DNA of 64,000 bases from a bacterium (GCA_028275345.1 JAPWUV010000009.1:109109-173108); one strand, 5' to 3'; shown: positions 1-64,000, numbered from the stretch's first letter. The notes: generated by a model not told the origin, from the letters alone. Numbers and translations: made by a program.

Positions 1-1478
1 TTCCCCTCGCACACCGTAGGTCCCACCCATGCCATGCACACCGGCGTCATTCTCGGCAAAAATACCCACGGTACCATTGCTATTGAAACCGAAAACCCCG
101 CGCGCGCTGCTACCAAGCTCTCCATAGTTCCCGGTACCATTGTGCTTGCCGTGAACAGCCGTGCCAGTCGTGGCCTCGCCGTACACGCCGTACTGAGCGC
201 CGCCCATTGCACGGAGGTTTCCGGTGGGCTGGCGGCCATACACGCCATAATCCGCGGTGCCCAAGTGGCCGAGATTCCCGTTGTAATGACTACCCCCCAC
301 TCCGTAGCCGCTCCTGCTGAACCCATACACACCGAAAGCGTTGGTTCCGTTGTTCGCCACACCGTGCACCCCAATGCCGTTGGAAGATGCCGCCTCTTCC
401 GTATACGCCCTCTGTGGAGCTTGCAAGGTAGCCGTAGTTGGCATCGCCGAGGTAGCCGAAGTTCCCGCTTGTCGCGTGCTGACCGCGCACGCCCGCACCA
501 TAGGCCTGGCCCAACACACCGTACTGCGCAGTACCGAGGCGGCCGAAGTTGCCGCTGGTCTGGTGGTAGCCATTTACAGCGATGCCGAGCGTGCCGGTGC
601 CCACGGCATTGACGGCCACTCCCTGACCGTTATCGGTGATCACGAAGGCAGGCCAGTCTGAGTTGATTGAGCCTTGGTACGGCAGCTCGAAGCCGCCGGT
701 CTCGTCCGTACCCCAGGCAAGATTGCCGCCGGAGAGCTTGAACACCTGCCCGTCGCTGCCGCCGGTAGCCGAAAGCTTCGCGGCCATCACCGCGCCGTCG
801 GCAATATCGGCGGTGCCAATCGTCCCATCCGCAAACTTCGCCGAAGTCACCGCATTGTCGGCAAGTTTTGCGGTGCCGACAGCACCCGGCGCGATCGTGG
901 GATTCGGGTACATCCCTGCGAGATCGCCACCGGCGGCACCCCCCCGGAGGGAGACTCACACCGGGAGCGAGCTTCGCTTGCGTCACGGCCCCATCCGCAA
1001 TCTTGGCCGTCGTCACCGCATTGGCCGCGAGAGTCGGATTAGGATAGGTGCCGGTCAAATCCCCGCCCGCCGTGATGCCACCAATACTCTCGGTGCTGGC
1101 AGCGCGGAAGCTGTAGCCAGAGCTCGTCAGAGGGATCCGCGGACTAAGCTCCACGCCTCCTCCAACCGTGACCCCAAGCCAGTACGGCCTGTCAAACGGC
1201 AAAGCCAATGGAACCACGCTTCCCAGCATCACATTGAAGACGCCCTTGGCAACCGCGACCACTTGGCCTTCCTCCCAAAGGGGACTGCCGCCCGTTCTCA
1301 CGTCATAGAGCCGGAAGGTGAGACTGTAGTCTCCGTCCGGTACCGCTGAGCCACTGGCGTCCGTCAACACGCCCTGGTAGCCGATGGTCCGTGGGATCTG
1401 TGCCAGGCCCGGTTTCGCTTCAAGAGGCAGCATCAGTCCCGCGGATAACCACGCCCGCGAGAAACTCGCCCCGCGCAT
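1..1478 (-). CDS. Secreted repeat surface protein (tail-fibre/collagen-like repeats); 5' part of gene, 3' end lies beyond window start; reading frame interrupted at least twice
   Basis: ATG at 1478..1476 preceded by GGAGG; signal-peptide-like N-terminus (MRGASFSRAWLSAGLMLPLEA); tandem repeats (GTYPNPTLAANAVTTAKIADGAVTQAKLA; MYPNPTIAPGAVGTAKLADNAVTSAKFADG) continue across frame changes at about 939-945 and 383-395. Confidence 0.55.
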
Positions 1479-2098
1479 GATCCTACCTCCTCTCCCGTCC
1501 TCACGGGAGGAATCCATGAAAACCACCCGCCTCCCTTCCCCATTACCCTCCCACATCGATTGCTCCAATACGGCTTGCCTCCTTCCCCCTCCCTTCGTTG
1601 ACCTGCACGTTTCACTCCCCCAAGGCCGATCCCACCGTCCACGGGGCCCACGCGCATGCGGTTCAGCTTGTGCCAACCAAGGCCCCCGCCGTCCCCGCAA
1701 CATGGCCTGCCTCGTCCGGCGTACGGGGCAGGAATTGTCCCGCCTCATGCGAAGGAGGTTACGTAATGTTCAGCCGGCATCCCTCCTCCCCCCTGTCTCT
1801 CCAACGCAAGGTCTGCCGTCCGTCCGTAGACCCTCCCGACTCCCGAAAACAGCCTTGCACACCCTTCTCCCCGGCTTCTCCTGCAAACGCCACCCGCTGC
1901 TCTCCGCGAACCAAAGCCCGCTCCCGCAGCAGCCTCTTCTTGCTATCCCGCAGGGCCAATCCGCAGCCACGCCGCGCCTCCGTCTCCTCCTCCGTCCGGC
2001 CCGAGCTCATCCCCCGGCGTCTACCCCAACTAAACCGGCGAGCACGCACGAGAAAACCCGCTCCCGCAGTAGAGCCAAGGATAAGCACGATCAACCCG

Positions 2099-2437
2099 CT
2101 ATCGCACGTACGTCAGCTTCCGCATCCGGACGAACACCCGCCCGCTCTTCTCCGACTTCGCCTCCAGCCGGTAGAGATAGACTCCACTGGCTAGACCCTC
2201 TCCCCGCACCTGCACCTTGTGATACCCCGCAGGGAAAGTCCCCTTCACCAGCGTCGCCACCTCCTCCCCAAGAGCATTGTAGAGCTTGGGGCTCACCTCA
2301 GCCCCCTCCGGAAGCGCAAACTCGATGGTCGTGCTCGGGTTGAACGGGTTGGGATAATTCTGTTCCAGCCGATACCCCCAGACGCCGCTCACCGGCCGTC
2401 GTCGATGCCAGCAACGGTTCTTCCGTGCACGGACCAA
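2099..2437 (-). pseudogene. Orphan T9SS C-terminal sorting domain (CTD) with no cargo domain upstream; likely gene remnant
   Basis: LEQNYPNPFNPSTTIEFALPEG...SGVYLYRLEA motif typical of T9SS CTDs; sequence immediately upstream on the same strand has stops in all frames (e.g. TAATTAG). Confidence 0.45.
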
Positions 2438-4540
2438 AAGTTCACGTCCCGCCTGTTCGCGCCTGTGGCACCTTCACTGGAAAGGCTGCGCTTGCAGGGT
2501 AGATGCCCCGTCGGCCTGAAATCTCCGCGCAGTTCGCGTTCTCGCGCGTACGATTGTGCGGGAAAGCTAATTACTGGACACTATCGTAGCCGTGGTGCTG
2601 GATGCGGGGACCTCTGTGGGTACAATGGCGGGCTTGGGCGAAGAACTGGAGCTGAAGAGGATGTGGGCAGAACCGACACGCACACCCGCATGGCGAGCAG
2701 GAACTCTCGGCTCTCCTTGGAGCCTGTGCACGCTCCGTTTCATCCTTCGACCTCTCGTTTGGACACTCGAAACTCCATCGTATCGGCTCCATTGAAACTG
2801 ACCCGAGCGAGGGACATCCCCGACGCTAGCGTCAGAAGAACCCCTCCCTCATGTATCCGGGGGTCCAAACCGCTTACCGCGAGGCGATTACCTCCTCCCC
2901 CGCGCCATAGGAGCCGCCGTTTCCCCCACCGAATTTCCACAACCCCCGCCAACGACCGATTCGTGGGAACAGGGCGCGCCAGAATCTCGAACCCCGGGTC
3001 CTTTCGCTCCGGTCAAGGGTCGCCAACTCTAGCAAGAATGTCAAGAAGAGTTTTCAGAACCGTCGCCCTCGTCGTCTCTTTCTTCTTGCAGCCGGGAGGA
3101 CAAGGTTCGATGCGAGAAGCGTCGCCCGCGGCGCTTCCGGGGACTTGCCCTATTAGCCAGGAGCTTCGTTGCGACGAGCGGCGTGGCATCCTCGGCTTTG
3201 CTTCTTTGGAGGAGCGGGGGCGTGGGAGCCTCACCGCAAATGCAGCAAGCCACGCGTGTCCGCTTTGGTGTCCGAAGCCCTCTCTCGGAGCGTACCTAGT
3301 CCTGCCCGCCGCCGAACCGCAGCGTCGACCCCGCCGGCGAAAGTCTCGCTCGCTGCTTGCCAGACCATCCGCCGTACCTCAGCTCGCTTTGGGACCAATG
3401 GTCAGCGAAGCGTTCAAGACGGCGCATTGGGCAGGGGGGTCGACCTAATCCCACATCCCCCGACGTCGAGCCAGAGGGGGCTCACCTCGGGCACCGCTGC
3501 TTCCCTCGGGGACAGCATCCACCGCTCGGTCCGAAGGCAGCCCCAATGCGTCCGGGCGTGCCACCGGTACAGCCCGCGGGGAGAACCGTTACGAACTGCG
3601 GCCTTCCGCCGCCCCGATCCGACCCAACGGCCAGGAGCAGTGGCGAATCGAGCGTGGAAAAAGGCCCGGCGCGCCTACCGCCCCTCGGCTGTCCGGAAGG
3701 ACGGTGCCGTTTTCTACCCTATGTCAAGCAGAACAGCCTCTTGAAGCCCGAGACGCTGGCCGTCGCCAGGGCCATTTATCCTCAGCAGGGTCTGCCTCTC
3801 GCAAGTGGGGAGACCAACGAAATGCCGATCCCTCGTGCGCAATGCCCATCCAATCCCGCGAATTCCCGACCCGTGGAGGCCGGCTCTTCAGCGCGCGGAA
3901 ACGCGCCTCGCGCTTTCTTGCTGGGGAAGTCGACCCCGCCAGTGGCCGTCACAGAGAGGACCTTATCGGGGGTCCCCACGCGGCCAAGACCCTCGCGGTT
4001 CTCGCAATTATGCCCTTAGTATTCGAGTACAAGAGCAGTCTAACCAGTGACTGAGTATCGTACGGGTCCGCACCAATATCGGTGAGTATTATCGCCCGGC
4101 GCTTTTGACTTACCTGCCCATGAGCGGCTTGGGACAGGAGCTCATAGAGAAAAGTACCGTACCGATTACCAGCCGGCTATGCATCGCAGCCTCCGTCCAT
4201 CTTTTGCGCCACGGCTCACCCAGATTACCCATCTACTTCTCTTTCGCAAATATTAACCACATCGGGAACACAACATAGGTCAAGTGACTGATTTCCCCCA
4301 ATAGGACAATCGCACTTCCGACTTAATCGCTAAATCGCACTTTCTTGTGATTCCGACCATGACCCCGCCTATCCGTCCACTTAGGAACAGCTCTCACCGT
4401 GCCCGGTACGCAGATCACCCACCGTCCCCGAGAGTTTCGGCTCAGCCAAGACTCCCCATTGCCTTGAAGCGCAACACTCCCCCGCGGGATCACAACCCTA
4501 CTGAGGGGGATACTTACCCTCTTCCCGTCTTTCGGGCTCC

Positions 4541-6960
4541 TCACCGCAATAGCAGCAGCTTCAGGCTCTCCGCTCCCGAGATACTCACGAACCGGCACAG
4601 GTAGACCCCCGAGGGCAAGATTCGTCCGCTCCGGTCTCTACCATCCCACCGCAGGAAATATTCTCCTGCCTCGTACACTCCGTCAACGAGAGTCACGACC
4701 TCGGCCCCCGTAATCGCGAAGACTCTCGCCACCACCCGGCCCCGGCGCGAAAGGGAGAAGTGGATGGTCGTGACGGAATTGAAGGGATTGGGACTGCTCC
4801 GGAGAGCAAACCCGCGGACAGGAGCCGCAGGACCGGCGGGGAAGCTTGGTTCGTAGGACACACCGGTGATGACAGCCTTTGCAACCCAGTCCAGTCGCCC
4901 GTATCCGTTGTTGGAGTAGTCGACGGACCAGTTGCCTTGCTCGTCCATCGTGCTCAGATCGACCATGCCGTCGCCGTCGTAGTCCGCGGGAATGGGCACG
5001 CAATCCTTGCCCCCGTAGATGGGCTCGGAGACCCAGTCGATGCCGACCAATCCCCAGCCCATGACGGCGTCCGTCATCCAGCGGCCCTCCTCCGTCTTCA
5101 CGCCGATCGCTGCCGCTCGGTCTGACCCGTACCGCCCTGGGGCCGGAATAGCCCCCATTCCCCCGTAATTGAGATTCGAAGGAGAAACCCAGTCCCACTG
5201 ATCCGCCGCTTGGAAGCCGTCGCGCGCCCAATCGATGAGCCAGCGCCCGTCATCAACTTTGATGGCCACATCCGCCTTCCCGTCGCCGTCGTAGTCGGCC
5301 GGGGCGGGATAGATGTTCCCCTCCGGGTAGTAGGCCTGAAGCCCGTGGGCGTGGAGATTCCACCCCGAAAAAGCGTCAGCGGAAAAGTCGAAGGACCAGC
5401 CGCCGTAGTACCCGAAAATGGCCACATCCGCCTTCCCATCGCCATCGTAGTCAGCGGGGACGGCCTGGACTTGGTAGAACCAGGCGCTGCCCCCGTACGG
5501 GAGTTTGAGGTCCCAGCTGCCGAAGCCGTTGTGCGCGTAATCGATGCACCATTCCCCCGTGAGATCGTCTTTGATGGCGATGTCCGCCTTCCCGTCCCCG
5601 TCGTAGTCGGCGGGAGCGGGCTGCGAGGATTTGTCCACGGCCGGCAAGCTGTGGCTACTCACCTGGAGATCCCAGCTCCCGAAGCCGTTCCTTGCGAAGT
5701 CGAGGAGCCAGCGCCCGTCGTTGACCTTCATCGCCAGATCGGCTTTGCCATCGCCATCGTAGTCCGCGGGACAGGGAAGGCGAAACTCCCCACAGGCGGA
5801 GCACCCGCGAGGGCGTGATGCATGATCCACGACTGGTAGCCCAGCACCGATGGCCCGGAGGAGGTCGGGGAAGCGCGCACGCTATCGCCATCGGCGGTGA
5901 GCCAGTAGCCGTCGCCGACCGCGGCAGTGATCGTCACGCGGTCCCGATTGGAGAAGTAATAGGGATTGAAATCCCAATACTCGTTCTGCCACTCGGGCCG
6001 GGGTGTGAGGACGACGCGCCGCTTGTCGTCCTTCAGCGCCAGGTACTTGCCGGACCAGTGCACAATCTTCGCCATCGACGGAGTCACGAATTCCAATCGC
6101 CACAGGAAGTCCGTGTTCCCGGGCTGGAGGGGCAGGAGCACGACCTTCGCCTCGCAGCGACGAGGGTAGGAATGGGCACAGAGGTACAGGTTATTGCCCG
6201 GGCTCAGCGAGAAATCCCTTTCGTTGCTGATGTAGAACCACGCCTGATCGTAGCCCTCGATGGTCTGCTTGCGCATCTCTTCGTTGGCCGTCCAGACCAG
6301 GAGGTAGATCCTTTCGTACTCGGTCTGGTCGATCAAACCCTCGTGGTAGCACTTGAGGAATTTGCCCACGTAGCTTCCATCCCCATAGACCGAGTTCCAG
6401 TAGATGGGCACGTTCGGAAGCTCAGCCCAGACGAAACGGCCCAGGAGGATGGTGTTCGTGGCGATGGCATCTCGCAGTTGCGGCAGGATATCCTGCGGCC
6501 GGATGCCGTGGCGCTGCATCATCGTGGCCAGCAAGGGGATGAGCGTGTTGTAGGATTGGGCGCAGTAATACGCGATGCGCGGGCTCTTGTTTTCGATGAG
6601 GATCTCGAACTGGTTGGCGGCATTGATGGCGTCGCGGATCCAGGCTTCGGTCGTCTGCTGCGAGGGCGGGTTGTTGAGATAGATTCGGTACTGCTCAATG
6701 AGCGCCTCCACGTCGGCTATTTGCTCTTCGGCGCGAACGATGTTGATCTCATCGAGGATCTCCTGTTTTGCCTGCTCAATGAGGTCGGCCAGATTGGGAT
6801 CCGGCTCCAGGAAGTTCTTGATGCGGTTGTAGGTATCCCACGCGGTCTTGATGAAGCTCAGGAAGTCGAACTCGCGGGACGGACTGGCATAGGAGACGGT
6901 TCCGAGGCCGGCAAGCCCCCAGAAGAGGACCCCAAGAAGGATGACTCGCTGCGATCTCAT
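4541..6960 (-). CDS. T9SS-sorted FG-GAP/VCBS-repeat protein with signal peptide and uncharacterised N-terminal domain; one apparent 1-bp frameshift near 5764-5770 joins ORFs 5728..6960 and 4541..5830
   Basis: ATG 6960 with GAGGAGG RBS; signal peptide MRSQRVILLGVLFWGLAGLGTVSYA; five PADYDGDGKAD repeats; C-terminal CTD (SPNPFNSVTTIHFSL...SGVYLCRF); the C-terminal ORF has no signal peptide of its own. Confidence 0.6.
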
Positions 6961-7091
6961 TGCTTCCTCCTCAGTTTGGCTGACGCACAGCCGGACAGGT
7001 TCGGGATGAAGCCCGCCGAGGGCGCGACGCCGGCCGATTCGGACCGCAGCGAGGACAGTGGCGCACAGAGGAAAGGCTCATTCCGTGGGGA

Positions 7092-8351
7092 TCAGCCGTA
7101 GCGGAGCCAGCGCAACACCTCCGGAAGTGTGGGCCGTTTCCCGAACATCAGGATCCCCACTCGGAAGATCCGTCCGACGGCCCAGATGCAGACCCACAGC
7201 GTCCCAAGAAGCAGAATCACCGATGCCGCAATCTGCACGAACGGGGGCGGATCCACCGCCACCCGGACAAACATCAGGATTGGAGCGAAGAACGGGATGA
7301 GGGACAGGATGACGCTCAAGCTGGAGTGCGGCGAGTTGAGGACGTAGAACATGGCCATAAACGGCACTACCAAGAGCATGATCACGGGGTACTGAAGCTG
7401 TTGAGCCTCGGTCTCGTTGTTCACCATCGCGCCGAGGGCTGCCCACATCGTCGAGTACAGGAGGTATCCGAGCACGAAAAAGACCACAAACGCCACAATG
7501 GTGCCAACGGGGATGGTGTTCCAGGCGAAATCCGGGCCCAGTTTCGCCTGCAACCAGTTCCCGCCGAACACGAAAAACCCCACCAAGATCACAGCCCAGA
7601 TCAGGTACTGCAAAAGCCCAACGGAACCGACGCCGAGGATCTTCGAGGCCATCAGCTGACCGGGACGCACAAGCGACAAAACGATCTCCACGGCGCGGGA
7701 GCTCTTCTCTTCGATCACAGCGCGGAGGACGAAAGTCCCATAGAAAACGAGGGTCATGTAGAGCGAAAGGACCAGGAGATAGATCACGAGGAATTCCGAG
7801 CCGCTGCTTCGCTCTTCCGCACCCTCCTTCTGCACCTTGAAGGTGCGCATGGGCAGCGTTCGGGTCAAGGCGAGAACGGTCCGCGGGTCGAAGCCTTGAT
7901 CCAGAAGACGCAATTCCGTCACGGCCGCTGACACCCGAGCTCTCACCCTTTCGTTGCGTTCGAAGCTCGACACATTCCTCGCGTAGAGCTCGATGGGCAC
8001 GGGGTCGGCAATGGCCCGGGCCGGCACCACCACAACCGCTTCCAGCTCGTTTTCGAGCACCTTTTGCAAAAGCGCTTTCTTGAGATCGGGCAGTCCGGCC
8101 GAATCGCAAGGGAAGAGACGAAACCGATCTTGCCTTTCGGATGCCCCCAGCCCACTCGCTTGCGAAAGCCTCCCTGTGAGATCGATCACGGCGATGCGGC
8201 TTTCCTTCTGGGCGCCGAGATGCATGAAGAGCGCCGGAAGCAGGCTCAAGCCCACGACCAATACCGGGAAGGCCAGCGTACCGATCCAGAATCCCTTCCC
8301 CCGCGTCCGCTGGAGGAATTCCTTGCGCATCAGGATCAGCACATTCTTCAC
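7092..8351 (-). CDS. ABC-2 family transporter permease
   Basis: Polytopic hydrophobic protein; 4-nt overlap with upstream ABC ATPase gene. Confidence 0.75.
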   Translation of the reverse strand: MKNVLILMRKEFLQRTRGKGFWIGTLAFPVLVVGLSLLPALFMHLGAQKESRIAVIDLTGRLSQASGLGASERQDRFRLFPCDSAGLPDLKKALLQKVLENELEAVVVVPARAIADPVPIELYARNVSSFERNERVRARVSAAVTELRLLDQGFDPRTVLALTRTLPMRTFKVQKEGAEERSSGSEFLVIYLLVLSLYMTLVFYGTFVLRAVIEEKSSRAVEIVLSLVRPGQLMASKILGVGSVGLLQYLIWAVILVGFFVFGGNWLQAKLGPDFAWNTIPVGTIVAFVVFFVLGYLLYSTMWAALGAMVNNETEAQQLQYPVIMLLVVPFMAMFYVLNSPHSSLSVILSLIPFFAPILMFVRVAVDPPPFVQIAASVILLLGTLWVCIWAVGRIFRVGILMFGKRPTLPEVLRWLRYG

Positions 8352-9262
8352 GGCGCCACCTCCGGACTGGCACCCTTCACGACGGCGATGAAAATCTCAT
8401 TCAGGCTGGGCTGGCGGATCTCAAACCGCCGGACCTCCACCTCCCGCACGGCGCGCTCAAGGATGGCCTGGGGAGTTACCCCCTTGCGCGGGCGGATTTC
8501 CACGTAATGCCCATAGTCGTCGTATCCCGCAACCAAGGACGGATCCTGCAGGAAGTGGGGCTCACCGCGGTAGGCCAGTACAACTCTCTCCTCGCCAAAT
8601 CGACGTTTCACCTCCGTTAGTTCCCCCACGAGTACGGCTCGACCCTGGTTGATCAGGCAGATCTCGTCGCACAGCTTTTCCACCTGTTCCATCAGGTGAG
8701 TGGAGAGGATGACCGTCGAGCCCTTCTTCACCAGCTCCAGGATCGCATCCTTCACCTCCCCGGCGCTGATGGGATCCAATCCCGTGAAGGGCTCGTCCAG
8801 GATCGCGATCTCCGGTTCGTGGAGAACTGCCCCGATGATCATCACCTTCTGCTGCATGCCCTTGGAGAGCTGCTCCACAGGCTTCTTCTCCCACTCCGCA
8901 AGCTCGAACCGCTCCAGCCAAAGGCGGATCTTCCGCCGCGCATCCCGCCGCTCCATCCCCCGAAGCACGGCCAGCAGCTCCAGGACCTCCCCTACCGGGA
9001 GCTTCGGGTACAAGCCTCTTTCTTCGGGTAGGTAGCCCACACGCTGGAGCACCCCGTCTCGGTTCGGCTTCCCCAGCACCAGGATCTCGCCCGTGTCCGG
9101 CCCGATGATGTTCATCACCATGCGGATGGTCGTGGTCTTGCCAGCGCCGTTCGGGCCGAGCAGCCCGAACACCCGCCCTCTTTCCACGGTGAGGGTCAGG
9201 TCGGACACTGCGCAAACCTCACCAAAGGACTTGCTCACGTGCCGCAATGAGAGAACTTCCAC
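8348..9262 (-). CDS. ABC transporter ATP-binding protein
   Basis: Walker A GPNGAGKTT, ABC signature LSKGMQQK, Walker B ILDEP; GTG start with GGAGG RBS. Confidence 0.85.
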   Translation of the reverse strand: MEVLSLRHVSKSFGEVCAVSDLTLTVERGRVFGLLGPNGAGKTTTIRMVMNIIGPDTGEILVLGKPNRDGVLQRVGYLPEERGLYPKLPVGEVLELLAVLRGMERRDARRKIRLWLERFELAEWEKKPVEQLSKGMQQKVMIIGAVLHEPEIAILDEPFTGLDPISAGEVKDAILELVKKGSTVILSTHLMEQVEKLCDEICLINQGRAVLVGELTEVKRRFGEERVVLAYRGEPHFLQDPSLVAGYDDYGHYVEIRPRKGVTPQAILERAVREVEVRRFEIRQPSLNEIFIAVVKGASPEVAP

Positions 9263-9552
9263 CCGTCGCCTCCTTCCTTACTCGAAAGCGAAACCCACCG
9301 CCCTGACGAACAGCAAGGCAAGTTAGTCAATCCACCGAGGGAAATCAAGCTTGCCCGACCGCGCAAACGGGCCCACCCCATCACGTAACCCCGGGCTCCA
9401 GCTCCCACGGAGTTCACAGCGCTACGCAATTGCCGGCATTGCGGGAAGTGTTGCAATGAATCAATCAGCGGGCTAAATTTCAACGGAACCCTACCCGCAG
9501 GAAATGCGGGAAGAGCCACAGTCCCGTTCCCTGATACGGGAGGGGCGCGGTC

Positions 9553-21671: not shown

Positions 21672-27636
<5,965 letters not shown>

Positions 27637-53331: not shown

Positions 53332-53765
53332 ATCCCTTCGTGCGCTACCAGCTCCCGGCGATCCTGTACGCGATGCTCATCTTCGCCATCTCCTCCGTGC
53401 CGCGCCTGGCGCCGCCTCCTCTCGGCCTGGACCTGGACGACAAGTTCTACCATTTCGTCGAGTACTTCATCTTCGGGTACCTCTGCGCGCGGGCTTTCTA
53501 CTACCAACGGAGCCGCCTCCTGCGGGATTTCGCCTTGATCATCGCCCTGGTGGCAGGTTCTCTCTACGCGGTGTCCGACGAGCTCCATCAATCCTTCGTG
53601 CCGGGTCGCAGCGCGGACGCTGGAGACTTGTTGGCCGACGTTTTCGGTGTGGTGAGTGCGGTGGCGCTCTTCGCAGCTCTGCGCTCCCGCCGTGTAGGTC
53701 GAAGGAGAAAACGCAGCGCACAGCGCCCCCAGGAGGTCACGACGAGCGTCCGCGAGGGGCGATAG
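53328..53765 (+). CDS. VanZ family membrane protein
   Basis: Hydrophobic helices; DExHQxF motif (DELHQSF); ATGA overlap with nnr. Confidence 0.7.
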   Translation: MNPFVRYQLPAILYAMLIFAISSVPRLAPPPLGLDLDDKFYHFVEYFIFGYLCARAFYYQRSRLLRDFALIIALVAGSLYAVSDELHQSFVPGRSADAGDLLADVFGVVSAVALFAALRSRRVGRRRKRSAQRPQEVTTSVREGR

Positions 53766-54027
53766 CCTCCGCGACGGCCCCGAGGGGGCAACCTTGCGGG
53801 ATACGGAGCAATCCTGCGCGCGGGAGTCGAAGTGACTCCTCGGAGAGAGCCCTTCCGAAGAATCGGGGGCGAGCGAACTTTTCGCCGCGCGTCAATTCCG
53901 CGGGCCGCTCAGGCGCAGACGGGCGGCACGACCGTGCGAACCGCAAGCTCGGTCCGCGGAGCGAAGGAGGCGCGGGGATGGTGCGCGCCCCGCGGATTCA
54001 TCCCAAAATCTTGCCTGAGGTTGGGAG

Positions 54028-54693
54028 ATGAGACCAGCAGCGAGAGATCGGAGGCTTCTTCCTCGGTGGGGAAGGTGGAGCACCCTGGCGGTCGCGGCGT
54101 TCCTCTTGAGCTCGGCCGGCCTGGCCACAGCCCAATGGCGGGGCGGGCCTCCGTTCGAACCCGACGAAAGCCGGCTCCGGCTCAGTCTTTGCGGCGGCGG
54201 ATACCGGATCTCACACAGCGAATTTGAGCAGTACTACAGCTCCCGCTGGGGGCTCGTGCCATCGCTTTTCGTTCGAGGGAAAGTCAAAGGAGTCGGACTC
54301 CTTTTTGGCGTGCGGGAATTCCGGAAAGGCCTGAACCGCAAGACCGCGGCAGAGTATGGAGACGCCGGCTCGGCTGCGTGGCGGCAGACGGTCTGGAACC
54401 TCGGCGTGCAATTGGGAGGCGGGGGTATGCGCCGCGTGCGCTCGGCCACCTACTTCGGGCTGTGCTACCACGTGGTACGGGAGCTGGTGGGGCCCCTCGT
54501 GCTGGATCGGAGCCGCTCCACTACCCTCGGATTCTTCCTCCTCGCCGAAACCGAATGGCTCATCCGCCCTCGCCTCGGGCTCGGGTGGATGATCGAGCTG
54601 AGCTCGGCGGCCCCGGCCCGTTCCGCAGCCTTTGAAGCGAACAGCATCGGGGGGCTGTACTTGGCAGCGGGCGTGCACTTCCACGCGCTGTGA
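54028..54693 (+). CDS. Hypothetical secreted protein, possibly outer-membrane beta-barrel
   Basis: Signal-like LAVAAFLLSSAGLATAQ; alternating hydrophobic pattern; ends in aromatic residues. Confidence 0.45.
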   Translation: MRPAARDRRLLPRWGRWSTLAVAAFLLSSAGLATAQWRGGPPFEPDESRLRLSLCGGGYRISHSEFEQYYSSRWGLVPSLFVRGKVKGVGLLFGVREFRKGLNRKTAAEYGDAGSAAWRQTVWNLGVQLGGGGMRRVRSATYFGLCYHVVRELVGPLVLDRSRSTTLGFFLLAETEWLIRPRLGLGWMIELSSAAPARSAAFEANSIGGLYLAAGVHFHAL

Positions 54694-54720
54694 GGGGGAT
54701 TGGCCTGTTCCTTCCCGCGC

Positions 54721-55479
54721 TCAGCCCTCGACGGTGAAGCCGGGGACCACGCAGAAGGCCGGGACAAGGGAAAGGAGAGCCGCGGCCGGGGCGCCGAACT
54801 CCCGGATCGCGGCGAAAAGCGCCTCCGCCTGATCTGCGCCCCACAATCCGAGCGGATCCAGCGTGAGGACGACCGCGCGCTCCGTACCCCCTTCCGCAAG
54901 GCGCCAGAATCGCTTCTCCCCGTCCCGAAGCGCGAACTCCCGGCGTTCGCGGAGGAGCTGCAGCATGGCTTCCGCCCGCTCGAGGTTCGCTCCCGCCTTC
55001 AGGAGCTGGCCCGTCATCTCCTGGAACCAGTCGACGGCCGCGTAGTCGCACACGCGGAGGTGAAACTTGGCCGAGGCGGCGTCCAACGCTCGATCCACAG
55101 TGACCCGGAAGATCACGGCCTCTCGGGGCAATGCCTCCTCCGTGCCAGCCAGCACGAGCGGACAGGCGTGGAGGGAGGCCAAAGCCATAGCGGTCCAGAG
55201 CTCAGCCGAAAGGCCCGGAGGAAGCATCCGCTCGCAGGCTCGGGCGAACTCCGGGCTGGGAAAATCCACCGGCACGTACGGGGATCCAGCCAGGCGTTTC
55301 GCCACCGCCGGGGAGCGACTTTCCGCAAGGTGGAGGGAGTAGCCGATGTCCCGGTAGCGGAACTTGCTCCCGACCCACTTGAGGGCAGCCAGCTCCGCTT
55401 CGGGATCCTGCCCGGGCGGATAGATCACTCCCCGCAGATTCTTCACTCGGACGATGAATTCGAGGAGCCAGTGGTTCAT
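54721..55479 (-). CDS. Hypothetical protein
   Basis: 252-aa ORF with normal composition; no motif recognised. Confidence 0.45.
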   Translation of the reverse strand: MNHWLLEFIVRVKNLRGVIYPPGQDPEAELAALKWVGSKFRYRDIGYSLHLAESRSPAVAKRLAGSPYVPVDFPSPEFARACERMLPPGLSAELWTAMALASLHACPLVLAGTEEALPREAVIFRVTVDRALDAASAKFHLRVCDYAAVDWFQEMTGQLLKAGANLERAEAMLQLLRERREFALRDGEKRFWRLAEGGTERAVVLTLDPLGLWGADQAEALFAAIREFGAPAAALLSLVPAFCVVPGFTVEG

Positions 55480-55540
55480 CTCCGTCGAGGAAAGAGCTTT
55501 GGCGCGAAGCCGTCACGGGTCCCCCGTTGCCTCGCCCCAC

Positions 55541-55575
55541 AAAAAAGAGGCTCGCCGCGGTCGACGGCGAGCCTC
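55541..55575 (-). terminator. Rho-independent terminator of clpC
   Basis: Perfect 11-bp stem GAGGCTCGCCG/CGGCGAGCCTC, 7-nt loop, followed on the minus strand by TTTTTT; 22 nt after clpC stop. Confidence 0.6.
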
Positions 55576-55596
55576 ATGGGTTGCGATTGACTCGCC

Positions 55597-58092
<2,496 letters not shown>

Positions 58093-58183
58093 CTCCGATT
58101 AACTCCGCTCTGGCTTGGTGCTGCCGATGAATTCCACTCTCTTTTACTCTCCCCCTGCCCCGACGTTCCAAAACGGGGTGCGG

Positions 58184-59260
58184 CTACGGAACGACCGCCC
58201 GTAGGCGCTCGCGCACGTACTGAGCGCGCAGGTGATCGCCCTCCTCCTCGTTCATCTCCCTCCCCGTGCGGAGACCCATGTGCGCTGGCTGCGTCAAGAC
58301 CAGAAGCTCGTTGATGAGGCGAAAGTCCCGGGGTAAGAGGCCTGCCACCATGCCCAAGCGGATGTGGCTCAGAACGTTCACGCATTCCAGCGCGCCCAGG
58401 AGCCTTGCATGCCGCACTACGCCTACCGCTCGCTCCACCGCATCCTCGAGGCGTAGCCTCTTCTCGCGGAGCAATTTGCCCACGCTGTCCTTCTCCAAAC
58501 CAATCAATTCTTCGGCAACTTTCCCCATCCGCTCAAGGAGTTTTTCTTCCGCACGGCCCAGCGTGACCTGATTGGAGACTTGGAAGATGTGGCCCACGGC
58601 CTGCGTCCCTTCCCCGTAGAAGCCGCGGAAGGTGAACTCCGTGAATCCCAGACGCTTGACCACCTCCTCCAGCGTCCCCGACAGGACCAGGCCCGGGAGG
58701 TGGATGAAGACGCTCACCCGCATCCCCGTGCCGGTATTGGTAGGACACGATGTAAGATAGCCAAACTCCTCGGAAAAAGCCAGGGGCAAGGCCTGATTGA
58801 GCTGGTCATCCAAGCGCGACAGCGTCTCCCAGGGCCTCTCCATCTGCAGCCCGCTAGCGATGCTCTGAAGCCGCAGGTGATCCTCCTCATTCACGATCAC
58901 GGAGAGGCTCTCGTCCGCCGAGGCCAGCAGTCCCGAGGGTCGCGGCCTGACCAGCACTTCCGGCGGGAGCAACCTCCGCTCCAGAAGAAACCGTCGCTCC
59001 AGCTCGCTCAGGCTGTCCACGCGCCAATAGCGGCATTGTCTCAGAGAGGGGACACTGTCGCGGCGGGACGTCACCTCCTGAAGCACAGCCTCCAGCTCGT
59101 CGGAACGCGCGTGCGGGGGAAAGCGGTGGCCCACCAGGTTGCGCGCCAGGCGGATGCGCGTGCTGATGACGGTCTCGGCATGCGGCCCGTCCGCAGCCAG
59201 CCAGGCGGGCGGAGCCTGGGCCATCCGGCGGAGCTCCTGGCCGTCGCCATCCCTGTTCAT
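58184..59260 (-). CDS. mcsB: Protein-arginine kinase McsB
   Basis: Guanido-kinase active-site motif CPTNTGTGMR. Confidence 0.85.
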   Translation of the reverse strand: MNRDGDGQELRRMAQAPPAWLAADGPHAETVISTRIRLARNLVGHRFPPHARSDELEAVLQEVTSRRDSVPSLRQCRYWRVDSLSELERRFLLERRLLPPEVLVRPRPSGLLASADESLSVIVNEEDHLRLQSIASGLQMERPWETLSRLDDQLNQALPLAFSEEFGYLTSCPTNTGTGMRVSVFIHLPGLVLSGTLEEVVKRLGFTEFTFRGFYGEGTQAVGHIFQVSNQVTLGRAEEKLLERMGKVAEELIGLEKDSVGKLLREKRLRLEDAVERAVGVVRHARLLGALECVNVLSHIRLGMVAGLLPRDFRLINELLVLTQPAHMGLRTGREMNEEEGDHLRAQYVRERLRAVVP

Positions 59261-59766
59261 TGGTCCGACCCTTTCGCCTGCCGCAGGAGATCCCGCAGAA
59301 GATCCCGCAGTTCCGCCGCGCGCTCGTACTCCTCTCGGGCGATCGCTTCCTCGAGCGCCTTGCGGATCTCGTCCGGGCTCTGGGTCACCACCTGATGGCG
59401 GAGATGCGGTGGCCGGCTCCCAATGTGCTTGGAGCTACCGTGGATCCTGCGCAACAGCGTGCGCAATTGCTCGGCGAAGGTGTTGTAGCACTCGGCGCAT
59501 CCCAGTAGCCCCGTCCGCTCCACATCTCGGTAGCAATGCCCACAGACGGGACATCGGGGAAGTGCCTCAGAAGCCACCTCCGGGTGCGTCTGACTGATGG
59601 CTTTGAGCAGGAGGCCTCCCAGCAGATGCGGCAACACGGCAAAAGGCAGGGTGAAGCCGTGCTCCTCCGCGCATCGCTGGCACATGTGGAGCTCGAGCTT
59701 CTGCGCGTTGACGATCTGGGTCAACTGCACTGTGGCCGGGCGGCTGTGGCAAATCTCGCAGAGCAT
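59257..59766 (-). CDS. mcsA: McsA-like activator of protein-arginine kinase (zinc fingers plus UVR motif)
   Basis: Four CxxC pairs and C-terminal UVR-like EEYERAAELRDLL; 4-nt overlap with mcsB. Confidence 0.8.
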   Translation of the reverse strand: MLCEICHSRPATVQLTQIVNAQKLELHMCQRCAEEHGFTLPFAVLPHLLGGLLLKAISQTHPEVASEALPRCPVCGHCYRDVERTGLLGCAECYNTFAEQLRTLLRRIHGSSKHIGSRPPHLRHQVVTQSPDEIRKALEEAIAREEYERAAELRDLLRDLLRQAKGSDQ

Positions 59767-60473
59767 CAGCGCACCAGAGGCAATTCGCGGCAGATGCGTC
59801 CATCGTACATCTCCAGAAGACGATCTGCGCTCTTGGCCAGCTCCAAATTGTGCGTCACGATGACCAGCGTCAACCCCTGCTCCGCCACCAAGCGCCAGAG
59901 GAGCTCGTGGAGCGCCCGGCTGGACTCTGCGTCCAGGTTCCCCGAGGGCTCGTCCGCCAGTAGGATGCGCGGCGAATTGGCGAGGGCTCTGGCCACCGCC
60001 ACCCGCTGCTGCTCGCCGCCGGAGAGCTCGTTGGGCCGATGATGCAAGCGGTCAGCCAACCCCACCTGCGCCAGGAGTTCCTCCGCCCTCCTGCGGGCCA
60101 GCTTTGGCTCCACACCAGCGATCAGCGCGGGCATCATCACATTCTCCAGCGCGGAGAACTCTGGCAGCAGATGGTGGAACTGGAACACGAAGCCGGTGGT
60201 ACGGTTCCGGAAGGCGGCAAGCCTCCGGTCGTCCATGCTGAACACATCCACTCCGTTCAGATGGACGGAGCCCGCGCTGGGACGATCCAGCGCTCCCAGA
60301 ATGTGGAGCAAGGTGCTCTTCCCCACCCCCGAAGGTCCAACCACCGAGACGATCTCGCCCCGGCGCACCTCCAGGTCGATCCCCTTGAGGACGTGGAGCT
60401 GCTGGTTCTTCCCCGTCGGGTAATACTTGTGGATCCCGCGGGCAGAGAGGATGATTTCGTCCGTACCCGGCAT
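59766..60473 (-). CDS. lolD: Lipoprotein-releasing system ATP-binding protein LolD
   Basis: GPSGVGKST Walker A, LSGGEQQR signature, LLADEP Walker B. Confidence 0.85.
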
Positions 60474-60476
60474 CCC

Positions 60477-61718
60477 TCACTCGTAACGGATCGCTGCCAC
60501 CGGATCGAGCTTGGCCGCCTTCGAGGAGGGGTAGAGGGTGGCCAGGAAGGAAAGCGTCATGGACGCCAGGGCCACCATCACGAAGTCCAGCGGCCGCATG
60601 TACACCGGAAGCTTGTTGATGATGTAGATGTCCGCCGGAAGACTGAACCATTCGAACTTGAGCTGCGACCAGCAGAGCACGTAGCCGCACACCAGGCCGA
60701 GGGCCGTGCCGATGGCCCCCGCCACAAGCCCTTCCAGCACGAAGATCCGCATGATGCTGCGGGAGGTGGCGCCCATCGACTTGAGGATCCCGATGTCTCG
60801 CGTCTTCTCCATCACCACCATGATCAGGGAACTGACGATGTTGAAGGCCGCCACCAAGATGATCAGGCTCAGCACGATGAACGCCGCCCACTTCTCGATC
60901 TGCATCCACGCAAAGAGGTTCTTGTTGAGCTGGAACCAGGTCAGGGTGTGAAAGGGATAGCCCAGCATGGCATCGAGGTGGTCGGCCACCCATTTCACGT
61001 GCCTGAGCTCATCGACGCGGATCTCCAGCCCCGTGATCCGGTTCCCCATCCGGAATAACTTCTGCGCCTGTTCGAGGGAGATGTAGGCGAAGGCGTCGTC
61101 GTACTCGTAGAGTCCGGTCTCGAAGTAGCCGGCCACGCGGCACTCGGTCATCGGCGGGATCTGCCCGAAGATGCCCGTGATCCCCGCCGGGCTCACGAGG
61201 ATCACTCGGTCGCCGACGGAAACGCCCAGCCGATCCGCCAGATTGAAACCGAGCACGATGCCCGGCAAGGGACGTCCCTCCTCGCCCGTCGGCCGGGGGC
61301 TGAAATCCAGCTGTCCGTACACGATCTTCTGGGGGATCTCCGTCACCTGGCCCAAGGTGGCCGGATCCGTCCCCTTGATGATCACTCCCTCGATCCCGGA
61401 TCCCGAGCGGATCATCGCCTTCTCGTAGATGTACGGCGACACTCCCACCACGTGCGGCACCCGGCGGACCTTCTCCATCACCTCCTGCCAGTTCTCGATG
61501 CCTTGGTCGTGGAAGGTCCGGAGCCGAATGTGGGCGTCGAAGCCGATGATCCGGGAGCGCACCTCCCGTTCGAACCCATTCATCACCGACAGCACGATCA
61601 CCAGCGCCGCCGTACCGATCATGATGCCGACGATGGAGAAGTAGGCGATGAGGGAGATGAACCCCGTCTTGCGGCGGGTTCGCAGATAGCGGCGCGCGAT
61701 GAAGAACTCGAACATCAT
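60477..61718 (-). CDS. Lipoprotein-releasing system permease, LolC/LolE family (FtsX-like)
   Basis: N-terminal TM, large periplasmic loop, C-terminal FtsX-type TM bundle. Confidence 0.85.
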
Positions 61719-63238
61719 GACTTTTCCGGCCGCATTTGCGGAAAGAGGATGACGTCGCGGATGGAGGGCTGGTTCGTCAGCAGCATGACCAGCCGGTCCA
61801 CCCCGATCCCAAGTCCAGCCGTGGGCGGCATGCCGTACTCGAGCGCGCGGAGGTAGTCCTCGTCCAGCACGTGGGCCTCCTCATCGCCCCTCTCGCGCAG
61901 CAACATCTGGCGCTCGAAGCGCTCCCGCTGGTCCAGGGGATCGTTGAGCTCGGAGAAGGCATTCCCAATCTCGTGCCCCGCGATGAACGGTTCAAACCGT
62001 TCCACCAGCTCCGGATCCTCCCGATGCCGCTTCGCCAGAGGGGAAAGCTCCACGGGATAGTCGATGATGAAAGTGGGCTGGATGAGGGTCGGCTCCACCT
62101 TTTCCTTGAAGATCTCATCCAGCAGTTTACCCTTGTCCCACCACTCCTCCGTCTCGAGGCCCAGCTGCCGGGCGGCGGCCCGGATTTCTTCTTCCGACCT
62201 GCCCTTGAGCGCGAAGCCCGTCACCTCTTCGATCGCGTCGAAGTAGCGCTTTCTCGGCCAGGGCGGATCCAAGCGAAGGGAATGCCCCTGATACTCGATC
62301 TCCAGGGTGCCCAACACCTCGTTCGCGATGTAGCCGATCATTTCCTCCACGAGATCCATCATGAAGTGGTAATCCTCGTAGGCCACGTACAGTTCCATCA
62401 TCGTGAACTCGGGGTTGTGGAAACGATCGATCCCCTCGTTCCGGAAGTCCTTCGAGATTTCGTACACACCCTCGAATCCGCCCACGATGAGGCGCTTCAG
62501 GTACAGTTCGTCCGCGATCCGCAGGTAGAGATCGACGTCCAGTGCGTTGTGATGGGTGATGAAGGGTCTGGCGGAAGCGCCTCCGTAGATCGGCTGGAGG
62601 ACGGGCGTTTCCACTTCGATATAGCCCTTGCCGTCGAGGAAACGCCGCATGGCGCTGAGGATGCGCGAGCGTTTGATGAAGACCTCCCGCACGTCGGGAT
62701 TCACCACCAGATCGACGTAGCGCTGGCGGTAGCGCAATTCCACGTCCGAGAACGGATCGTACACCTCCCGCCGTCCGTCCACGATCCGTTCCTTGACCAC
62801 CGGTAGGGGGCGAAGATTCTTGGCGAGCAGCTCAATCTGCTGTGCCTTGACCGTGATCTCCCCGGTGCGGGTGCGGAACACCTGTCCTTCGACCCCGAGG
62901 AAATCCCCGATGTCCAGCAGCCTGAAGAGCTCGTAACGATCCTCGCCCACTTCGTCTATCCGGACGTAGATCTGCACCCGACCGCTGGCGTCGGCAATGT
63001 GAGCGAAACTCGCCTTGCCATGCTCCCGCTTGGACATGATGCGGCCCGCCACCCGGACCGTTTGTCCCTCCAGGCGTTCGAACCCTTCCACGATCTCCCG
63101 AGCCCGGTGGGTGCGGCGAAAGGCGTACGGATAGGGGTTGATCCCCATTTGTCTCAGGCGGGCCAGCTTCTCCCGCCGGATCCGCATCAGCTCGTTCAGT
63201 TCCCTCTCGTATTCAGCCCTTGCTGTAGGCTCCGCCAT
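61715..63238 (-). CDS. lysS: Lysine--tRNA ligase (class II)
   Basis: OB-fold N-terminal domain plus class II catalytic core, 507 aa. Confidence 0.95.
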
Positions 63239-63305
63239 TTCCCGCGCCCTTTCTTTGTTTGCAGACGAAAGGGAAAACCCAAGATCCGACTGGAGCCGCG
63301 TCCGT

Positions 63306-64000
63306 TCAGCCGTTCAAATACACCCGCGGGACCCGCTTCGAGACCCAGCAGGTCACCTCGTAGGGGATCGTATTCAGCTTCTCGCAGATGGATCGCACGC
63401 TGAGCTCGGCGTCGCCCTGTCTGCCGAAAAGCACGACCTCATCGCCCACCTCGACGGGGCTGTCCAGTCCCACGTCCACCAGGATTTGATCCATGCACAC
63501 ACGGCCTACCACGGGGTAGCGACGCCCGCGGATCAAGACCTCGCCGCAATTGGAGAGCAGCCGGTTGTAGCCGTCCGCGTAGCCGACGGGGAGCGTGGCG
63601 ATGCGCGTCGCCCGCGGAGTGAGGTACGTCCTGCCGTAGCTGATGGGAGTCCCTGCCGGCACCTCTTTCAGGTAGATCACCCGCGTCTTGAAGGTCATCG
63701 CGGGCCGAACGGCCACCGACTCGCTCGTCTCCGCACTGGGGTAGTATCCGTACATCATGATGCCCGGGCGCACGAGGTCAAAGTAGGCCTCGGGAAGGTC
63801 CAGAATCGCGCCGCTATTGGCGGCGTGGCGCACGAGGCCGCGAACGTTCGCCTCTTCCAAAGCCCGAAGCACCTGCCGAAACCTCGTCAGCTGCTCGAAG
63901 GCGAAGGTCTTGTCCCGTTCATCCGAAGTGGCCAGATGGGTGTAGATGCCTTCGACCTCCACACCCGGAGTAGCCCGAGCTTCTTGCACAAAGCGCAGCG
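63306..64000 (-). CDS. alr: Alanine racemase, C-terminal part (gene continues past window end)
   Basis: [13 protein letters not shown] and RVCMDQ motifs. Confidence 0.85.

Follow-up and report, generated by a model that had tools for sequence, protein, structure and literature searches.

Adjacent secreted- and surface-protein genes at differing stages of probable mutational decay in an uncultured FCB-group bacterium

In Salmonella, young pseudogenes are reported to be usually deleted rapidly (Kuo & Ochman 2010, PMC2916853). Here we analyze a 64,000-nucleotide (nt) stretch of bacterial DNA (GCA_028275345.1, JAPWUV010000009.1:109109-173108; hereafter the window, numbered from its first letter), the first 6,960 nt of which appear to hold a cluster of accessory secreted- and surface-protein genes at differing stages of mutational decay, a reading to which we assign a probability of about 0.87. 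Four relics at graded decay are probably represented, i.e., a knocked-out FG-GAP gene, a fiber pseudogene with a slippage hotspot, the 3′ stump of a small type IX secretion system (T9SS) protein gene, reduced to its sorting domain, and a 5′ stump of a DUF1593-like gene. As in the Salmonella pseudogenes, the lesions are small frameshifting indels, the young lesion (in the FG-GAP gene) is strain specific while the older relics are shared and highly degraded, and the genes evolve neutrally once dead. Unlike in Salmonella, adjacent relics at graded decay persist together, leaving about 8 kb in the window strain, from the ABC transporter gene at 7092 to an acyltransferase gene beyond the window start, without a single intact gene. 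The organism also differs, being apparently an environmental FCB-group bacterium known from metagenomes only.

Other described systems share parts of this picture. Homopolymeric-tract contingency loci resemble it in that a poly-G run lies within surface-fiber coding sequence and occurs as three length alleles in near-identical strains; here, however, no allele gives a full-length product, and the tract would act, not as a switch, but as a hotspot of mutation within a gene that is already dead. T9SS type A cargo proteins (PF18962/TIGR04183) end in a sorting domain, as do an orphan open reading frame (ORF) and the FG-GAP protein at this locus. Unlike such cargo, the orphan ORF has neither signal peptide nor passenger, and the signal and sorting domain of the FG-GAP gene lie in different frames in the window strain. 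In Tannerella, the KLIKK proteases exemplify arrays of T9SS cargo genes that are acquired or lost at the strain or species level (PMC4404884), and, as there, clustered T9SS cargo genes here vary in presence or integrity among close relatives. The change at our locus is in-place decay via point lesions, in contrast to the presence or absence of whole arrays.

The locus lies away from contig edges, as position 1 of the window corresponds to position 23561 of a 100,208-bp contig (k141_157206, ENA ERZ27247212), with which window segments 1 to 9300, 18524 to 38994, and ~49257 to 64000 are 100% identical. The k141 prefix suggests a MEGAHIT short-read assembly. The window has a G+C content of ~62%. 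Its ClpC protein finds best matches of only 64 to 67% identity among GTDB species genomes, in metagenome-assembled genomes of Calditrichaceae, Bacteroidota, Ignavibacteriaceae, and Rhodothermales, and further intact Por_Secre_tail genes are present elsewhere in the window. Based on these two observations, the host is probably an uncultured FCB-group bacterium (Bacteroidota/Ignavibacteria/Calditrichota-like) with a T9SS; the placement stops at the FCB group because the ClpC matches do not exceed 64 to 67% identity. Querying the GTDB species genomes with the neighboring ABC permease did not find relatives. Sister-strain contigs were found via exact-protein look-ups with this permease and other genes. 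They come from different samples, L002 (ENA ERZ27247228, a 235-kb contig), L003 (Logan SRR6049666), and L090 (JGI 3300009503), each ~99% identical to the window. Evidence on the lesions was drawn from independent assemblies and deposited protein records, in place of read-level checks.

The gene at positions 1 to 1476 (minus strand) encodes a glycine-rich, DUF5907-repeat, tail-fiber-like secreted protein. It starts with an ATG at 1476 and runs beyond the window start, ending ~720 nt further in the window strain (L001), and its reconstruction as a 730-aa protein requires three 1-nt corrections. The first break is a poly-G tract at 939 to 945 (G7 in the window, out of frame), and the second is a 1-nt insertion within 382 to 400, where there is no long homopolymer; both had been recognized in the initial annotation, which placed the second at 383 to 395. 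A third break lies ~320 nt past the window start, in the flanking contig. The reconstruction aligns end to end with an intact homologue of 727 aa (P0241; 56% identity, 100% coverage) and with three others (P0243, P0262, and P0261). The alignments cross all three junctions ('LPPGGAAGGDL', 'GVYGRGGSSNGIGVHG', and 'GEAWVELPSYFEALNDDFRYQLT', the second of which corresponds to 'GVYGEAHSSNGCGVRG' in the intact homologues). An orthologue of 546 aa from contig L007 also aligns across the poly-G site.

The four haplotypes examined for this gene, L001, L002, L003, and L090, all carry the second and third frameshifts. Because these two lesions are common to all of them, the fiber gene is probably a long-dead pseudogene, inactivated before the sampled strains diverged from their common ancestor. 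Other lesions vary. The poly-G tract is G7 in the window strain and in a further haplotype (P0366/P0367), G8 in L002 and L003, and G6, which is in frame, in L090. In addition, the 5 nt GCGAT at 443 to 447 (minus strand), present in the window strain, are deleted in L002, L003, and L090, an extra lineage-specific, frame-disrupting lesion of the sister strains.

Three tract lengths among strains ~99% identical, in a gene for a tail-fiber-like surface protein of the class that is typically phase varied, are what would be expected if the poly-G were a working phase-variation switch for a surface fiber or adhesin and the locus regulated and alive. All haplotypes, however, have the two downstream frameshifts, and those with G6 and G8 also have the 5-nt deletion, so that even the in-frame G6 allele (P0246/P0369, 492/507 aa) runs into the deletion and the shared frameshifts. 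As a result, the conserved C-terminal domain of the fiber protein is missing from the product of every allele, and no tract length restores a complete ORF. A run of six G is also short for an efficient slippage switch in contingency loci. Neutral substitutions and a degraded signal peptide (see below) likewise speak against a switch, and we regard it as distinctly improbable. The intact L007 orthologue, which has lower GC, reads CCT CCC GGT GGT at the same site and has no run, for which reason the slippage-prone G run is best seen as a probable by-product of GC-rich codon choice.

Substitutions between strains in the fiber gene comprise 11 nonsynonymous and 3 synonymous changes, compared to 34 and 60 in 22 intact neighbor genes (P = 0.0036). 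The signal-peptide core reads LMLPLEAKPGLAQ in the window versus LMLILAASLSLAQ in the homologues, having gained E, K, and P. A rescue of protein function by programmed ribosomal frameshifting, or by functional split genes, could appeal to the fact that all three fiber breaks in the window strain take the same one-base correction. However, no slippery or stimulatory motifs are common to the sites, the sister strains require different corrections in the fiber gene (G8 and the 5-nt deletion), the intact homologues are single ORFs, and the evolution is neutral, which makes such a rescue hardly conceivable.

As to its family, the fiber gene matches DUF5907 (PF19264) at 36.4 bits against a cutoff of 27 (33.5 bits for the homologue P0241). 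The family also matches tail-fiber PHROGs (phrog_892, E = 5e-8) and, weakly and under the curated cutoff, Bdello_MAT_N. In this respect it is like phage tail fibers and the mosaic adhesive trimer fibers of Bdellovibrio; unlike in those, the matches are limited to the DUF5907 repeat or the N-terminal region, and the conserved C-terminal domain belongs to no family. Neither Pfam and TIGR profiles nor a custom hidden Markov model (HMM) of the sorting domain detected a Por_Secre_tail domain in the fiber gene, so the gene is not demonstrable T9SS cargo. The initial annotation had grouped it, as a repeat protein, within a cluster of disrupted T9SS cargo genes. That designation holds for the orphan sorting domain and the FG-GAP gene; the repeat protein is a DUF5907 tail-fiber-like gene.

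Upstream of the fiber gene, and separated from it by a spacer (1477 to 2098; G-rich on the minus strand) that lacks coding periodicity and matches no family, is the orphan ORF (2099 to 2437). That it encodes a T9SS sorting domain with no cargo, as previously noted, is borne out by profile scores above cutoff for both PF18962 (31.2 versus 27 bits) and TIGR04183 (29.2 versus 23 bits). The ORF begins MVRARKNRCWHRRRP or VSGVWGYRLEQ, and it was by reading these starts that signal peptide and passenger domain were judged to be missing. Its closest relatives (P0002 to P0014) are proteins of 176 to 192 aa, 63 to 77% identical over the sorting domain only, in which a signal peptide is followed by a 'QYAIPRSVFGSGG...GTLGQPFIG...GFWY' module and then by the sorting domain. 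Homology of the orphan ORF to these relatives begins abruptly at YRLEQNYPNPF (position 2374). A collinear 'GFWY' trace lies at 2392 to 2472 in another frame, where it is the top match of an HMM built on the N-terminal half of these relatives; since the match is weak (E = 0.5), the 5′ half of the gene is essentially gone. Between strains, the sorting domain has four nonsynonymous and no synonymous substitutions. We thus read the segment at 2099 to 2472 (minus strand; well-preserved domain at 2102 to 2374) as the probable 3′ relic of a small T9SS type A gene of ~185 aa.

The 2.1 kb that follow (2438 to 4540) had been described as free of ORFs, and no credible gene was found there in any strain. 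The longest minus-strand stop-free stretch has 121 codons, as many as shuffles give, and same-strand ORFs in a sister strain are all ≤73 aa. Codon-position G+C periodicity, which is 0.3 to 0.5 in real genes and 0.3 in the sorting domain, is absent from 2440 to 4540 and from 1500 to 2100. A six-frame Pfam scan of the gap matched only positions 1 to 37 of PF07632, a nucleoside-hydrolase-like family of 268 positions (E = 8.8e-6; 25.9 bits, below the gathering score of 26.8). This match (4098 to 3997, minus strand) is preceded, after a frame change, by a lipobox-type signal peptide, MHSRLVIGTVLFSMSSC, at 4184 to 4134; the remaining ~230 positions of the family are missing from all frames. The same motif is found in a deposited protein, P0016. 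The presence of a lipoprotein-type signal peptide directly upstream of the PF07632 match supports interpretation of 3997 to 4184 (minus strand) as the 5′ stump of a gene for a DUF1593/Sde182-like secreted lipoprotein. At least two different genes, rather than a single decayed one, would therefore have left end-relics in the gap, separated by ~1.5 kb of unrecognizable, neutrally evolving DNA (2473 to 3996; no periodicity, no Pfam or Rfam match).

In P0016 itself (155 aa, from a 563-nt ENA contig), a signal peptide and the first ~35 DUF1593 residues lead straight into a T9SS sorting domain, as though the interior of a DUF1593 cargo gene with a sorting domain had been deleted in frame.

A different account of the gap, in which it is a gene that went unrecognized or else functions as noncoding DNA, whether for regulation or as a large structured RNA, would draw on its retention in all strains and on a plus-strand stop-free stretch of 336 codons, longer than 99.6% of dinucleotide shuffles. 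Rfam gave no hit at gathering thresholds across the whole window and none at E ≤ 1 in 1400 to 4700, however, and the gap folds no better than shuffles (z = +1.8 and −0.95). The gap has diverged between strains at the pace of neutral sequence, and three 1-nt indels, including those at 3487 and 3664, distinguish the strains there. The long plus-strand ORF was itself considered as a gene and rejected. It spans 409 aa (2219 to 3448; called as 347 aa and listed as a hypothetical protein of that size in public collections), is antisense to the sorting domain and the gap, and lies for the most part within the unrecognizable segment. It shows 12 nonsynonymous and 4 synonymous substitutions and lacks codon periodicity, and a search of 1.84 billion representatives yielded no homologue beyond this species. 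Its stop-free length, which only 0.4% of dinucleotide shuffles exceed, is a minor oddity. A functional gap is, in our view, highly improbable. A 24-nt similarity between 3224 to 3247 and the stop region of the FG-GAP gene was also tried as a third decayed sorting domain and discarded, the custom HMM having found only two such domains.

The FG-GAP gene (4541 to 6960, minus strand) encodes a beta-propeller T9SS cargo protein consisting of an N-terminal domain of no assigned family (~390 aa), FG-GAP/VCBS repeats (PF01839 and PF13517 above gathering score, at 61.6 and 61.2 bits; DNA repeat period, 156 nt), and a divergent type A sorting domain. The latter falls below the TIGR04183 cutoff (16.9 versus 23 bits) and is recognized by the custom HMM (E = 2e-18); the orthologues carry PF18962. 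In the window strain, the gene is split into ORFs of 410 aa (5728 to 6960) and 429 aa (4541 to 5830) by a C3 run at 5774 to 5776 in place of the intact C4 (GCCTTCCCCTGT to GCCTTCCCTGT). A 1-bp correction had been anticipated near 5764 to 5770, 4 to 10 nt from the missing C. The gene is a single intact 806-aa protein in L002, in L003, and in a JGI record (P0121), and full-length orthologues measure 800 to 830 aa (43 to 68% identity). The comparison with close relatives proposed in the initial annotation recovered the intact 806-aa FG-GAP protein in sister strains; for the fiber gene, intact homologues span every junction.

The FG-GAP gene differs between strains by 9 nonsynonymous and 16 synonymous substitutions (3 and 10 downstream of the frameshift), as in the intact genes (P = 1.0). 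Since the substitutions still show purifying selection, the inactivation is probably very recent, with selection acting until then. By reading, the signal peptide (MRSQRVILLGVLFWGLAGLG...) and the sorting domain now lie in different frames. As they are on separate polypeptides, we infer that the split products cannot be secreted: the N-terminal fragment would keep a Sec signal without a sorting domain, and the C-terminal fragment a sorting domain without a signal peptide.

Several observations concern the FG-GAP gene and its surroundings in their own right. At four-fold-degenerate sites it differs between strains by 2.3%, a threefold excess over the background of 0.76% (P = 0.006), which hints at recombination or a locally higher mutation rate. 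The 161-kb L090 contig (JGI) stops inside the gene, its positions 1 to 520 corresponding to window 4541 to 5060; strain variation or the internal 156-nt repeats may have broken the assembly there. Synteny is not conserved around FG-GAP orthologues of 51 to 68% identity, so the ancestral content of the gap is unreadable from relatives. Beside a 56%-identical orthologue, in L007 (7228 to 9284) and also in L008 and L009, a ThuA-like gene is cut to 98 aa, and next to it comes a reverse transcriptase of the group II intron type (RVT_1, 371 to 386 aa). The T9SS cargo genes downstream of RVT_1 differ between L007 and L008, and the neighborhood of this orthologue is thus strain variable as well. In the window, scans for repeats, promoters, and terminators did not find insertion sequence ends or inverted repeats, only the intragenic repeats of the FG-GAP and DUF5907 genes.

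The window was compared with ERZ27247228 over 53.6 kb, leaving out 39 to 49 kb, where an exact-protein look-up (40879 to 41217) gave no record. Six of the 10 indel events between the strains fall within 1 to 5777, a segment amounting to 10.8% of the sequence under comparison (P = 2.2e-4, binomial). The other four, in the remaining 47.8 kb, are all intergenic, and no intact gene has an indel. The long genes gltB, hsdR-like, clpC, and lysS are intact, in agreement with the earlier remark that the disruptions are not general assembly noise. All-site divergence is 0.90% in 1 to 5777 and 1.0% in the gap; neither value can be told apart from the 0.76% that intact genes show at four-fold-degenerate sites (P = 0.46 and 0.32). 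Taken together, the fiber gene (11:3) and the orphan sorting domain (4:0) differ from the intact genes (34:60) with a P value of 0.0004.

These data bear directly on whether the frame breaks could be sequencing or assembly errors in genes that are truly intact. Two of the lesions do lie in homopolymers (G7 at 939 to 945 and C3 at 5774 to 5776), and the FG-GAP frameshift occurs in one haplotype only. Yet the same two fiber frameshifts recur in four assemblies that differ in sample and pipeline, in haplotypes ~1% apart. NCBI, JGI/IMG, Logan, and ENA all list the same 410-aa and 396-aa products of the frameshifted FG-GAP gene, which argues that this lesion is not an assembler artifact, and the C3/C4 context is not error prone in short reads. 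Neither the zero coding indels in 47.8 kb of neighboring sequence nor the neutral substitution ratios, which are beyond what assembly error can yield, fit this explanation, which we consider very improbable. The lesions are most probably true mutations and reflect ordinary pseudogenization, in an uncommonly well-documented case.

Overall, homology to intact full-length proteins extends on both sides of each disruption in the fiber and FG-GAP genes, and the lesions are reproducible across the L001, L002, L003, and L090 assemblies in the former and across four collections in the latter. Relaxed selection is apparent in the fiber gene, the orphan sorting domain, and the gap; its absence from the FG-GAP gene (9:16) fits a very recent inactivation. 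With old shared lesions beside newer private ones, neutrally evolving dead parts, and an intact FG-GAP gene in a sister strain, the initial proposal of ongoing surface-protein gene decay or turnover fared well. That proposal was to be given up if the indels proved to be assembly errors and the gap a correctly framed gene; instead, the same indels turn up across independent assemblies and across collections, and the gap is gene free in every strain.

Some points weigh against decay as the explanation of the locus. The counts are small (14 substitutions in the fiber gene and 4 in the sorting domain). The four collections that hold the truncated FG-GAP products may share one sequencing run, and a systematic read error is thus still conceivable. 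The middle ~1.5 kb of the gap traces to no source gene. Divergence between strains is also heterogeneous, reaching ~8% at four-fold sites in the T9SS cargo gene at 49455 to 50999, so that recombination, rather than relaxed selection, could add to the raised divergence seen here. The four competing explanations discussed above (read or assembly error, phase variation, a functional gap, and frameshifting) together take up what our estimate for decay leaves over.

On the decay reading, the sequence of events may be pictured as follows. The genes would have become dispensable and come under relaxed selection, with slow deletion then keeping the relics in place. Once dead, the fiber gene has kept gaining lineage-specific lesions, through slippage at a G6 run to yield G6, G7, and G8 and through the 5-nt deletion. 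Two further genes would have been left as ends only, one as the sorting domain of the small T9SS protein and the other as the DUF1593-like signal peptide plus 37 residues. The ~1.5 kb between these relics evolves at the four-fold-degenerate rate, tolerating 1-nt indels. Finally, the FG-GAP gene lost one C of its C4 run in the window lineage only, after a period of purifying selection.

A more speculative idea, which we consider unlikely, is that the locus belongs to a strain-variable 'cargo island', with T9SS substrates and surface fibers continually being replaced by recombination and later discarded, the poly-G having once been a genuine phase switch of the fiber. The three-fold raised four-fold divergence of the FG-GAP gene, a divergent cargo-gene 3′ end at ~49.3 to 50.0 kb (10 to 30%), and the variable cargo beside the 56%-identical orthologue are hints in this direction. 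If true, a cargo island would imply contingency-locus behavior and rapid turnover of the surface proteome in a free-living uncultured FCB lineage.

Two regions elsewhere in the window also drew attention. At 49257 to 49970, comprising the 3′ part of a GH30 plus Por_Secre_tail gene (49455 to 50999) and downstream intergenic sequence, divergence from the sister strains leaps abruptly from <1% to 10 to 30% per 100 nt, with three small indels immediately beyond the stop codon. Over its whole length, this gene has 8.3% four-fold-site divergence and 30 nonsynonymous to 32 synonymous substitutions. The jump suggests that recombination had a breakpoint here, or that the allele was replaced, in one more T9SS cargo gene. 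The other region, ~900 nt at 47900 to 48780 that lie between real genes, just before a holo-ACP synthase gene (from 48783), has ~72% G+C, almost no codon periodicity, and only one R/P/S-rich, junk-like ORF, and may be another noncoding or decayed segment.

The locus reveals no new mechanism and is notable only for the clustering of its relics and the lasting of the old ones. It has consequences for annotation, in that public protein collections list as genes a 97- to 112-aa 'T9SS sorting domain protein', 410-aa and 396-aa 'hypothetical proteins', and a 347- to 409-aa antisense ORF; all of these ought to be marked there as fragments of pseudogenes or as spurious calls. For the biology of the organism, the adjacent occurrence of an apparently fresh single-base knockout, an old, multiply hit pseudogene with a slippage hotspot, and end-relics would provide a clear multistrain snapshot of secreted-protein gene death in a wild population.

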